Positions 20,342 through 34,650 of a stretch of DNA of 64,000 nucleotides are shown in pieces. Below the pieces are notes generated by a model. The model saw only the letters and a program-made list of their open reading frames with translations, was not told the origin of the DNA and ran no database searches. The stretch's first letter is position 1. Each line of letters opens with the position of its first letter. A program made the translations under genes and the position numbers. Origin of the DNA: a phage. The stretch lies in sequence record PZ027503.1. One strand, written 5' to 3'.

Positions 20342-20680
20342 GATAATCTCCTCTCATTCTTAGCCATCTTTCATGGCAATCATCAATCACCAACATCATA
20401 CGATCAATCTTAGGGAATTACAATCGAATTATCATAGGGGATTCCTATCAATTATCCCATATATACCGATTATTTTTGACACCCCACTCTTGTATAAAAA
20501 GTAACCCAAAATATCTACGGGGAGAGATTATTTCGGGACACCCTGTTTCATGGCAATCATGGCAAGAATATCTAATAGAATCAATATGATATGGCAAAAA
20601 TCATGGCGCATACGTAAGAAGTGCTTAACGCGAACTTTCGGGCCGTCAGGTCCACGCAGCGACAATTCCCAAATATCATG

Positions 20681-20703
20681 CGAATGAGAATAATTATCAT
20701 TCG
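20681..20703. promoter_or_regulatory. operator-like palindrome CGAATGA-N9-TCATTCG
   Basis: inverted repeat seen in sequence; related motifs at 20863, 33553, 33625. Confidence 0.4.
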
Positions 20704-21117
20704 TATTCAATGACTTATGCAAGGCTCATGCCAACATAGCGACAAGGTGGGCCACTTGATTATAAATCACACAAACACTTATTTATCAATAGGTTGGCAA
20801 CTTCATCATATGACGGAACAATGTCAACTAATCCCGCTCATAACAGACAGACTATTATTTATATGAGAATGATTATTATTTAAACGTTTATTAACATAAA
20901 ACCAGAATAAATCAAGAATTTTCTGATTTTATTTACGTTTAAGAGAAGATGCTCAACATCCTACCGGATCGCCGTTGGCAATCCTGCGGATATTTACGCC
21001 CCCATGATTAAGGTTTATCTCTTTTCTTAGTGCTCAACATTCCCGCCCGTGGCGGTAACATTTCGCCCCCAAAATTATTGACTTTTATTCTATTATGTGC
21101 ATAGTGTGCAATGTATC

Positions 21118-33036: not shown

Positions 33037-33303
33037 ATGACAAATACTACATTACACCTTATGCACTCATTGGGCTGGCAAGGCGGCACGGTGCACCAGG
33101 TAGCAAGCGCAACGGGCTTAAAGGTTGAAACAGTTCTCAACCTGGGCGATCATAAGGTGGAAGAGATAGATCATTTTGATTCGTTCGCTGATGGTTATTT
33201 ATGGGCTTGCAGTGGCGGCGGGGAAAGCAAGATACCGCCAGGGGAGCGGGGTAATATGTATTTTTGGTTAGGTGTCCTATCCTGGCAAGAAGATAAAAAA
33301 TAA
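33037..33303 (+). CDS. hypothetical protein (88 aa)
   Basis: ORF track; isolated rightward ORF in hub, weak RBS. Confidence 0.35.
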   Translation: MTNTTLHLMHSLGWQGGTVHQVASATGLKVETVLNLGDHKVEEIDHFDSFADGYLWACSGGGESKIPPGERGNMYFWLGVLSWQEDKK

Positions 33304-33552
33304 TCTTGACAAGCCCAGGGATCGGGCTTATACTGTTTTACATACAGAAGAGGAAGCGCCACCCCACGGCGTAAAGGCGGGGCTAACATACCAGGGCGCT
33401 GGTTGGAAGGTTGATCGCCGGTAGGCTGGGCGCTATATATTTGTAAAGAAATGTAAAGATAAAATAATCGCTTGCTTTCCTGGCTGGATCTGTTATTCTT
33501 ATTACATGGCGAGGGGACACGGGAGCGCGAGACAAACACCACCCCTGCGCGT

Positions 33553-33670
33553 CATTCTCTAGATGAGAATGATTATCATTCACCTTATTAAATAAGAATC
33601 AATCTCATTTATAAACTTAAATGCGAATCATTATCATTTGCATTTCCATATGAGAACTCTTCTCATTCTC
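33553..33670. promoter_or_regulatory. cluster of operator-like palindromes (TCATTCTC/GAGAATGA, GAATGATTATCATTC, GAATCATTATCATT)
   Basis: overlapping inverted repeats seen in sequence; same motif family as 20681 and 20863. Confidence 0.45.
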
Positions 33671-33686
33671 ACCTGCATAAATTTTT

Positions 33687-33863
33687 GTAAACTTTAAATT
33701 TTGCTTTTGTACTTTCATTTTTGTAAAAGCAAAAAAACTTTAAATACTGTGGGCGCGCAAAATTTTTAAAATTTTCCTTGACTTTTGAGTTTTGTTTTGT
33801 ATCTAACATTTTAAGATAATTTTCCTAAACTTTAAATTTTGGTTTTCAACTTTCACTTTTGTA
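33687..33863. repeat. two 39-bp direct repeats (35/39 identical) plus partial copies, iteron-like
   Basis: AAACTTTAAATTTTGCTTTTGTACTTTCATTTTTGTAAA at 33687 and 33825; AT-rich. Confidence 0.5.
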
Positions 33864-34024
33864 AATTCTTAAAAAGTTTAAATAATTTGAGGGATTTTTG
33901 AGATAATGGATAGTGGGAATTTGATATAACCTTTAATCTTATTAGTAGACCTTCAGGAACCCACTTAGATCGAATCCTAGTGATGCAAACTGAAAAAGAT
34001 AAGGGTTTGTATAGGACAAAATAA

Positions 34025-34055
34025 CAGGCTCTCTACGGTGCTGTAGGAGCCTTAT
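34025..34055. terminator. bidirectional terminator
   Basis: GGCTCTCTACGGTGCTGTAGGAGCC hairpin with T-rich flanks. Confidence 0.5.
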
Positions 34056-34107
34056 TTCTATGCTACAAAGTGACACCTTTGTTCTAAAAATGAAAAAAGT
34101 TAAAATA

Positions 34108-34650
34108 TCACAAATATCGTCTTTGCGGTATTTTGTCTGGGAAAAGTATTTCGATCAGTTTATTATGATATTTACCTAAAAGATTCTGCCCTTTCCAGGT
34201 GGCAGGGTTTAGCACCCCTGGTTCATACATCCCCATTCCAATTCCGTAAACCTTATCGTAGGGGCTTGCTTCAACAAACGTTTTGTATTGGTAAAGGTGT
34301 AAGTCTGCATACAAATCTGGATTCTGTACATATTTCAAGCATAAACCTCGCATAACAATACGCTCACGGTTCTCTTCCCATACGTTGTTATCAAAATCCG
34401 ACACTGCCCTACCCATACGTTTGTAATAAGCTTGGATCTTCTCATCTTTCCGTATCAAACTATGAGTCAGAATAGCCTGTGCAGTGTTGTGATCATTAAA
34501 AAGCAAAGCTTTACGCCACATCATGTATTGTTCGACACAATTAAATGTCTGATTGTAACCTGGTTCGGTTTCTGTAAAGGGTGCAATATACCAATTACTA
34601 AAAACATCTTTATGTGAAAAGAAGAATACATAATCATCAGTTATTCGCAT
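34108..34650 (-). CDS. NADAR (YbiA-like) domain protein
   Basis: FFFSHKDVFSNWYIAPF and CVEQYMMWRKALLF motifs typical of YbiA/NADAR. Confidence 0.75.
   Translation of the reverse strand: MRITDDYVFFFSHKDVFSNWYIAPFTETEPGYNQTFNCVEQYMMWRKALLFNDHNTAQAILTHSLIRKDEKIQAYYKRMGRAVSDFDNNVWEENRERIVMRGLCLKYVQNPDLYADLHLYQYKTFVEASPYDKVYGIGMGMYEPGVLNPATWKGQNLLGKYHNKLIEILFPDKIPQRRYL

Follow-up and report, generated by a model that had tools for sequence, protein, structure and literature searches.

What does a conserved stretch of DNA without genes do in the early region of a large myovirus genome? This question is raised by positions 33304-34107 of sequence record PZ027503.1, a stretch of 64,000 nucleotides that was analysed as a whole and is called here the window. 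The window comes from a phAPEC8-like myovirus (Phapecoctavirus, Stephanstirmvirinae, about 150 kb); a 2-kb query matched 145 phage records, the best of them at 94-97% identity, and the gene-free stretch is left unannotated in the records of most of these relatives. A sequence-only reading of the window had pointed to iteron-like direct repeats of 39 bp and partial copies of them in an AT-rich, gene-free region of 0.7 kb, and had proposed a replication origin, a regulatory hub or a packaging site. The AT-rich and gene-free character of the region was confirmed, and its length was corrected to 804 nt. The analyses described below revealed that the repeats belong to a three-unit array of 210 bp (33680-33889), which most probably consists of protein-binding sites on double-stranded DNA. 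That the bound array marks an origin of replication is our leading hypothesis, and a tentative one.

Comparison of the region with itself showed that the two 39-bp repeats are present at 33687-33725 and 33825-33863, with 34 identical positions of 39 and not the 35 that had been counted. Without gaps, the similarity extends to 72 nt (33680-33751 compared to 33818-33889), of which 59 are identical (82%), at a spacing of 138 nt. The best diagonal score was 34, while 200 dinucleotide shuffles of the AT-rich region alone gave 10.2 +/- 1.2, with a maximum of 16. The two partial copies, at 33731-33747 and 33870-33887, also proved to be real, and each represents the third box of its unit. The two repeats correspond to units 1 and 3 of the array, whose middle unit is degenerate. 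Seven boxes of the form ACTTTnAnnTTTG (about 14 bp) were located on the same strand, at 33691, 33711, 33737, 33781, 33829, 33849, and 33875; the distances from box to box are 20, 26, 44, 48, 20, and 26 nt, and the boxes are thereby grouped into composite units of about 70 bp. The box set of the window reads AAACTTTAAATTTTG, ACTTTCAYTTTTG, and AAAAASTTTAAATA. The 11-mer AAASTTTAAAT occurs four times in the 64 kb (0.45 expected), always on the + strand and always within the array. No other 210-nt stretch of the window is as AT-rich as the array, whose GC content is 0.214 (mean of the window, 0.392). The middle unit contains, in addition, the hexamer pair TTGACT-16-TATCTA and a -10-like hexamer, GATAAT, at 33815-33820. 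A genome-wide promoter motif was rejected, given that AAASTTTAAAT, CTTTAAATA, and ACTTTCAYTTTT are essentially confined to the array in the 64 kb, and the array motif is unlike the late motif TggTAaAAtA of rV5 (PMC3606486). Inspection also led us to reject a miniature CRISPR-like array, in view of the 82% identity between the 72-nt units, the presence of only two clear copies, and the absence of a cas context. The pattern AAAAACTTTAAATA was too unspecific for searches of viral contigs, where it gave at least 120 chance matches.

The array is under stronger constraint than its surroundings. Among the genus members tuntematon, anhysbys, and EF1-1, it is identical at 210/210 positions in two and at 209/210 in one, with unit 1 at 100% in all three, while the flanking segments of the hub differ by 2-13%; for tuntematon, the chance of finding no change in 210 nt at the rate of the flanks is about 6e-10. 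Identity of at least 99% over the array was found in 62 of 65 records; over the 210 nt that follow it, this level was reached in only 2 of 63 (Fisher p = 7e-30), and over the 210 nt before it in 16 of 69 (p = 4e-19). The array is thus more conserved than the neighbouring genes, which show 94-97% identity over 2 kb. A search of viral contigs for loci anchored on the neighbouring NADAR gene returned five loci, of which the useful one, L147, is more distant. In L147, units 1 and 3 are each 81% identical to those of the window, as compared to 63% for the middle unit, 58% for the palindromes and 62% for the downstream segment, and the spacing is kept at 139 nt. Moreover, the same two substitutions, which convert AAACTTTAAATTTTG to AAACTTTAGAATTTG, are found in both units 1 and 3 of L147, and thus represent a concerted change. 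This pattern indicates selection on the boxes and on their spacing, with the linker sequence free to vary between genera.

The same organisation was found well beyond the genus. Sensitive blastn searches revealed a syntenic non-coding hub of 0.8-1.2 kb across the Stephanstirmvirinae and Vequintavirinae; over its GC-rich first 300 nt, this hub shows 70-77% identity in Justusliebigvirus, Mydovirus, Seunavirus, and Vequintavirus and in phages of Pectobacterium and Erwinia. For the comparison, the loci of other genera were read together with 14 more contigs, which were retrieved with a 23-nt anchor from the conserved part. In every lineage examined, the hub carries three direct-repeat units of 63-78 nt, and outside the lineage of the window the middle unit is a full one. 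Unit 3 follows unit 1 at 138 nt in the window, at 139 nt in L147, and at about 141-143 nt in the other lineages, even though this distance is divided differently between the units (75+67, 67+74, 67+75, 74+65, 63+78, 64+78, and 76+67 in Justusliebigvirus, Mydovirus, Seunavirus, Vequintavirus, and further contigs). The sequences of the boxes, on the other hand, are lineage-specific. Arrays fall into a ACTTTAAAT type and an AATACG-N18-CGATCGAG type, with sub-variants that include the AGAA change of L147, and phi92-like boxes read TTGAACTTTTCATTTT ... AAAAACTTTAAATAA. The unit of the Vequintavirinae type consists of AATACG, exactly 18 nt, and then YGATCGAGAMCC (YGATCGAG), and 25 distinct units of this kind were aligned without a single insertion or deletion. 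One contig (L137) has a mosaic hub, in which P1, E1, and the small open reading frame (ORF) are Stephanstirmvirinae-like and are combined with a Vequintavirinae-type array (AAATACG-N18-CGATCGAGAACC), suggesting recombination within the hub. Four PhiTE-like contigs (L133, L138, L140, and L141) contain direct repeats of about 41 nt, TAATGTAACnTTTATG...CATTAGTGGGGCATAA, 200-300 nt after the array, at hub coordinates of about 635-720; these are lineage-specific and not ToxI-like.

The level at which the array is read was addressed by structure prediction and by inspection of the reading frames. RNAalifold predicted no base pair (0 pairs) in an alignment of 20 Vequintavirinae-type units, the array of the window folds no better than shuffled sequences on either strand (z = +1.46 and +0.26), and no Rfam family was found in five hubs, namely that of the window and four others. 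None of the ORFs that overlap the array is conserved in relatives; a small protein on the A-rich minus strand (an ORF of 46 amino acids) was considered and rejected, as it is not conserved in L147 or in alia. In the absence of both RNA structure and ORF, the array is therefore taken to be read as DNA sequence, and the combination of conserved primary sequence with helical spacing is the signature of protein-binding DNA. These features strongly favour the view that the array is a set of double-stranded binding sites for a sequence-specific protein, which would assemble there into a nucleoprotein complex of fixed geometry. The protein is probably encoded by the phage, as rV5 and phAPEC8 share a host and differ in their boxes. 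The 88-amino-acid ORF upstream was rejected as the partner that would set the specificity of the array, because its LGWQGGTVHQVA protein occurs with both array types.

The features of the hub and its borders are listed in Table 1. Their order is constant among the hubs compared: P1, E1, two copies of TGTAAAGA, P2, E2, one to five palindromes, P3 in several lineages, and the array.

Table 1. Position and description of the features in and next to the non-coding hub, in window coordinates.
Feature	Position	Strand	Description
Small ORF	33037-33303	+	88 amino acids, LGWQGGTVHQVA motif; opens the + strand island; context only
Promoter P1	33306-33334	+	TTGACA-17-TATACT; 11/12 of the sigma-70 consensus (consensus scan)
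E1	33340-33430	+	GC-rich element of about 90 nt downstream of P1; candidate small RNA
Direct repeat	33442-33459	+	TGTAAAGA, two copies with a 10-nt period, directly upstream of P2; kept in all hubs
Promoter P2	33472-33499	+	TTGCTT-16-TATTCT; equivalent TTGCAA-17-TATATT in other lineages
E2	33506-33556	+	GC-rich stem-loop of about 50 nt with GAGACAAACACC loop; candidate small RNA; kept across lineages
Palindromes	33563-33666		Four copies with a 29-nt period, consensus ATGAGAATnATTCTCAT; Fur-box-like
Array unit 1	33680-33751	+	Boxes at 33691, 33711, 33737; holds the first 39-bp repeat and the first partial copy
Middle unit	33752-33817	+	Degenerate; single weak box at 33781; partial third copy at 33770-33798
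Array unit 3	33818-33889	+	Boxes at 33829, 33849, 33875; holds the second 39-bp repeat and the second partial copy
P4	33899-33907	+	TGAGATAAT, extended -10-type motif directly after unit 3; predicted promoter
Terminator	34027-34059		Hairpin; closes the + strand hub and also serves the converging - strand NADAR gene
NADAR-domain gene	34108-34650	-	3' end converges on the hub; Pfam PF08719, E = 8e-36

The position and the hexamers of P1 are kept in all lineages examined. P2 scores below the threshold of the consensus scan and was identified by reading the sequence and the aligned hubs. A third promoter, P3, of the extended -10 type (TTGACw-17/18-TGnGATACT or GAAAAT), lies directly upstream of unit 1 in KpS8, EspYZU15, L137, and L139. 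Downstream of P1, E1 showed 70-77% identity in distant genera by blastn, and its 23-nt core, CACGGCGWAAAGGCGGGGCTAAC, was found exactly in 14 viral contigs. RNAalifold predicted 16 pairs for E1, including one covarying pair (GC to AU, 5/12), with conserved hairpins and a variable apical stem. The alignment-based fold of E2 was weak, with five pairs, two of them with compensatory changes. No Rfam match was obtained for either element, and from their sequences E1 and E2 are candidates for novel phage small RNAs. In contig L144, E1 is split by an insertion of about 740 nt, whose ORF resembles, by eye only, a free-standing homing endonuclease of the HNH type; the insertion is followed by another E1-like copy, which is divergent and has a TTGACA...CATAAT promoter of its own. 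Targeting by a mobile endonuclease implies that the E1 sequence is highly constrained. The only plasmid match to the hub, in CP057073.1 (17311-17460), covers only the E1/E2 part at rV5-like identity, and this 137.6-kb E. coli "non-mobilizable plasmid" probably represents the genome of an rV5-like phage that was submitted as a plasmid.

The cluster of palindromes that had been noted beside the repeats was confirmed. Palindromes of the ATGAGAATnATTCTCAT family have eight matches in the window, compared to 0.67 expected; two of these, at 20684-20700 and 20863-20879, are located in the homologue of the terminal repeat (see below), and others were found in locus L006 at 1990-2180 and 2497-2520. The family is common to the hub, the terminal repeat and Repeat Region 3 of T5-like phages, and its presence in T5-like, rV5-like, and phAPEC8-like phages points to a host factor. 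The best palindrome of the window (33565-33583) agrees at 16 of 19 positions with a Fur-box consensus of E. coli, and the palindromes may be sites for the host Fur protein. At the other end of the hub, TGAGATAAT-type motifs recur before or after the arrays of L147, KpS8, and L139, and TTTGAGATAW motifs were seen beside the arrays of L147, KpS8, EspYZU15, and L139. The bidirectional terminator held up as well, with T-runs on both sides of the hairpin; RNAfold predicted a hairpin of 11 pairs followed by a U-rich tail, and the feature is annotated as "terminator" in the records of phAPEC8 and ASO2A. From TGAGATAAT to the terminator there are about 120 nt, which would allow a transcript of about 140 nt (fold z = -1.44). 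No intrinsic terminator was found between the promoters and 34027, and since the upstream promoters point in the same direction, the array is very probably transcribed. Taken together, these results uphold the earlier description of a regulatory hub without genes that contains direct repeats of an iteron-like kind, in that a conserved, constrained, non-coding and unstructured array of boxes lies downstream of consensus promoters and beside operator-like palindromes.

Genomic context analyses showed that the window covers the early and DNA-metabolism region, with genes for a helicase and ribonucleotide reductases. The gene blocks on either side of the hub lie on the - strand, and the small ORF and the non-coding stretch therefore form a + strand island. 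The 88-amino-acid product of this ORF matches phrog_19316 (function unknown) and had no Pfam hit, and the ORF is annotated as a hypothetical coding sequence in relatives. The family shares the motif LGWQGGTVHQVAxxTGL, which by eye resembles a helix-turn-helix, and heads the hub in several genera (in the window and in L137, L140, and L141, for example), while an unrelated small ORF (MENxxVxTSETMVTL...) occupies the same position in Mydovirus and Seunavirus. On the other side, the NADAR gene is labelled "GTP cyclohydrolase II" or "YbiA-like N-glycosidase" in various records. Other neighbours of the hub encode an endonuclease, an AAA ATPase and proteins of unknown function.

What, then, would a protein complex on this array be for? 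An origin of replication, activated by transcription and iteron-like in its repeats, is the answer that we favour over each of the others, with a confidence that stays below the even mark. According to this hypothesis, host RNA polymerase would initiate at P1 and P2, which form a tandem of early promoters, as well as at P3 in other lineages, and a G-rich RNA would be transcribed into the array, which in Phapecoctavirus is the most easily melted DNA of the 64 kb. Transcription, the bound protein, or both would open the DNA, the phage helicase-primase would be loaded, and the terminator would confine transcription to the hub. In line with this, the conserved P1 and P2 read into the most AT-rich 210 nt of the window, with the terminator beyond. 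No other conserved non-coding region is as large as the hub, which is present irrespective of the mode of packaging; the authors of the rV5 genome marked a "non-coding" box, found that the skew followed transcription only, and could not locate an origin by it (PMC3606486). The lineage-specific boxes and fixed geometry of the array, its extreme conservation, and its setting in the early and DNA-metabolism region also speak for an origin. Origins of T4, namely oriF(uvsY) and oriG(34), and the primary origin of T7 consist of promoters followed by an AT-rich unwinding element, and the proposed mechanism can also be likened to the transcriptional activation of lambda ori. As at the T4 and T7 origins, strong promoters here read into the most AT-rich DNA of the region, and a phage-encoded helicase is present in the window; unlike them, the hub has two to three tandem promoters of the host type, each with a conserved, GC-rich and probably structured element, it contains a repeat array, which the T4 and T7 origins lack, and its AT-richness is not kept in sister lineages. 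Phages of the rV5 type carry primase-helicases similar to gp4 of T7 (PMC3606486).

The likeness to iteron origins is a looser one. Origins of the iteron type, such as lambda ori, P1 oriR and those of plasmids with iterons, contain tandem repeats that are classically 17-22 bp long, and the crr region of P4 has two direct repeats of about 120 bp with several short iterons in each. Like these, the array is made of short boxes in the same orientation within a non-coding and conserved segment, which is AT-rich in Phapecoctavirus, and its box is lineage-specific, as expected for a cognate binder encoded by the element itself. P4 crr comes closest in composite organisation, the long repeat here being likewise built of short boxes. 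In contrast to the iteron origins, the array has units of about 70 bp with three different sub-boxes, no adjoining Rep- or O-like gene and no DnaA boxes, and its unevenly spaced boxes have neither the regularity of a tandem series nor the classical repeat length. The array lacks or leaves open most of the defining features of classical iteron origins, and it is iteron-like in a generic sense.

Several further results weigh against an origin. No gene for a replication initiator, primase or helicase adjoins the hub, although an initiator may be encoded in another part of the genome, and the sole co-oriented ORF of the hub (88 amino acids) does not co-vary with the array type. A DnaA-dependent origin was rejected, no match to TTWTNCACA being found within 5 kb of the hub (the whole window has six matches, compared to 10.7 expected). 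The AT-richness is not conserved, homologous arrays having a GC content of 0.32-0.49, near the composition of the genome in PhiTE-like phages, and the length of the composite units is not that of classical iterons. The signs of a conserved fold in E1 suggest that the upstream transcripts have functions of their own and are not only primers. The hub gave no hits on E. coli chromosomes and was not found on plasmids beyond the E1/E2 match in CP057073.1. The GC skew in the window tracks gene orientation only, and in the searchable literature we found no experimental replication data for these phages. A more elaborate version, in which E1 and E2 are small RNAs made from host promoters, Fur-like operators gate the read-through according to iron status, and the origin array beyond is bound by a phage protein, so that host physiology would be coupled to the start of phage DNA replication, is improbable as a joint claim; if true, it would be the first origin for the rV5/phAPEC8 supergroup and the first iron-gated origin of a phage.

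The position of the genome ends was determined from relatives, and it refuted the suggestion that the repeats form a packaging site or terminus: the physical ends of relatives map to about 20626-20953 of the window, 12.7 kb away from the hub. For the Phapecoctavirus Schickermooser, Korf et al. linearised the genome at abrupt read ends and reported a terminal repeat of 328 bp (PMC6563267); the ends of its record map to 20953-19446 and 22205-20626 of the window, the repeat corresponding to about 20626-20953. For the Justusliebigvirus BME3, a direct terminal repeat (DTR) of 342 bp was determined with PhageTerm (PMC12210895); it is annotated 11.7 kb from the hub of that phage and maps to 20670-20718 of the window. 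Several other records open at about 20.3-21.2 kb of the window. Judging by these matches, window 20626-20953 is the homologue of the short DTR, and the genome ends of this type of phage lie here. The adjacent segment at 21-22 kb shows an anomaly of composition (GC skew +0.15, AT skew -0.24). PhiTE and PVP-SE1 are reported to be circularly permuted (PMC3475682). The hub with its array is kept in both, which shows that the hub does not need a fixed end for its function.

The closest competitor of an origin is a transcription-regulatory array, in which the boxes would be operator- or enhancer-like sites for a phage-encoded regulator and no replication would start; its targets could be the units of the hub itself (P1-P4, E1, E2, and the RNA of about 140 nt) or the divergent early gene block, and it could act, for instance, as a roadblock or switch that shuts off early transcription by the host polymerase. 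We regard this as possible and rather unlikely. The density of promoter elements, with P1 and P2 conserved, P3 in several lineages and TGAGATAAT-type motifs in the window and in L147, speaks in its favour, as do the terminator that closes the unit and the operator-like palindromes that adjoin it, and conservation of boxes and spacing without RNA structure would suit any DNA-binding protein and not an initiator only. The boxes are, however, found nowhere else in the 64 kb and are therefore not a general promoter or regulator motif. By inspection, there is no consistent sigma-70 promoter inside the units across lineages: the units of the window have only weak matches (9/12), no consistent hexamer pair occurs in the 25 Vequintavirinae-type units or in those of alia, and the genuine promoters P1-P3 lie outside the units. 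In addition, all 210 nt are invariant in the genus, spacers included, which is more than a few operators need, and no candidate regulator was found among the neighbours or by co-variation with the array type. The very probable transcription of the array and the RNA-like appearance of E1 and E2 lend some weight to a function at the RNA level, with the units as unstructured, U/A-rich modules of a long early non-coding RNA, such as a sponge or decoy for an RNA-binding protein or nuclease of the host or of a defence system. PhiTE, of the same phage group, uses a repetitive non-coding RNA against ToxIN (PMC3475682), and its pseudo-ToxI resembles the array in being a repetitive non-coding locus of an rV5-like phage that is probably transcribed. 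But type III antitoxins are contiguous, near-identical pseudoknot repeats of about 36 nt (about 34-45), whereas the units here are about 70 nt long, 82% alike, non-contiguous and unstructured. Identity of the hub with the pseudo-ToxI locus was rejected, as pseudo-ToxI lies in another intergenic region and the ToxI sequence used as query had no match in the hub of L141. Given also the absence of predicted pairs in 20 units, the z of +1.46, the lack of an Rfam match, and a fixed 18-nt spacer within units and a span of 138-143 nt, as would be expected from the geometry of the DNA helix rather than from a sponge, an RNA-level function was judged to be unlikely.

Readings tied to the ends of the genome fared worse. 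In T5, Repeat Region 3 is a large, conserved, untranslated region of repeats and palindromes and is a candidate for the injection stop signal (iss), at 7.9% of the genome; its hallmarks are DnaA boxes that occur in pairs within inverted repeats (IRD'-spacer-IRC') and a position at the inner edge of a terminal repeat of about 10 kb (Davison, bioRxiv 10.1101/866236). The hub resembles this region in its ordered direct repeats and palindromes, its lack of translation, and its location about 8-9% from the genome end. The two also share the palindrome family (AATGAGAATnATTCTCATT), with blastn matches inside the left terminal repeat of T5-like phages, and HNH endonuclease insertions in some members of both. 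A comparable checkpoint for DNA entry, at which a pause would let the small early genes between end and hub be expressed first, would fit the distance of the hub from the DTR in BME3 (11.7 kb, or 7.9%) and from the end in Schickermooser (about 13-14.5 kb, or 9%), as well as the many small ORFs of unknown function in this interval and the presence of the same palindromes in the terminal repeat. We nevertheless consider it very unlikely. Only the palindromes are common with T5, and the AT-rich repeats are not: the direct repeats of T5, TGTCGGATTYGCACA in seven to nine copies, are unrelated to the array. The DnaA-box pairs of Davison's model are absent from the hub, which lies outside a long terminal repeat, the terminal repeat here being only about 330 bp; hub and array are kept in the circularly permuted PhiTE and PVP-SE1, where there is no fixed end (PMC3475682), and for none of these phages is a transfer in two steps known to have been reported. 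For a packaging signal or terminus (pac or cos), the generic combination of direct repeats, palindromes and AT-rich non-coding DNA and the circular record of ETEC-TG, which happens to open at about 33936 of the window, can be cited; with the ends placed at 20626-20953 by read ends and PhageTerm, the hub conserved irrespective of packaging mode and no terminase gene nearby, such a signal is extremely improbable. AT-rich non-coding DNA duplicates easily, but a neutral local duplication without function would hardly explain near-invariance in 62 of 65 records next to variable flanks, or a geometry kept across two subfamilies, and its probability is negligible. What probability remains was reserved for functions outside these readings.

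The rV5-like and phAPEC8/phi92-like myoviruses are often isolated and are used therapeutically against E. coli, Klebsiella, Salmonella, and Cronobacter, and to our knowledge neither an origin of replication nor an early regulatory circuit nor a non-coding RNA has been defined in them. The searchable literature yielded no account of the hub, of its RNAs or of the array, and the repeated array of putative binding sites embedded in the hub appears to be without earlier description there. What had been an anonymous "non-coding box" is now precisely delimited, with three promoters, two candidate small RNAs, operators that look like those of a host factor, and a 210-bp array. An origin would provide a handle for engineering, for replication-based studies of host range, and for a search for the cognate initiator, whereas a regulatory array would define an early switch. 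Under either reading, the array is a marker of constraint that current genome annotation has overlooked.

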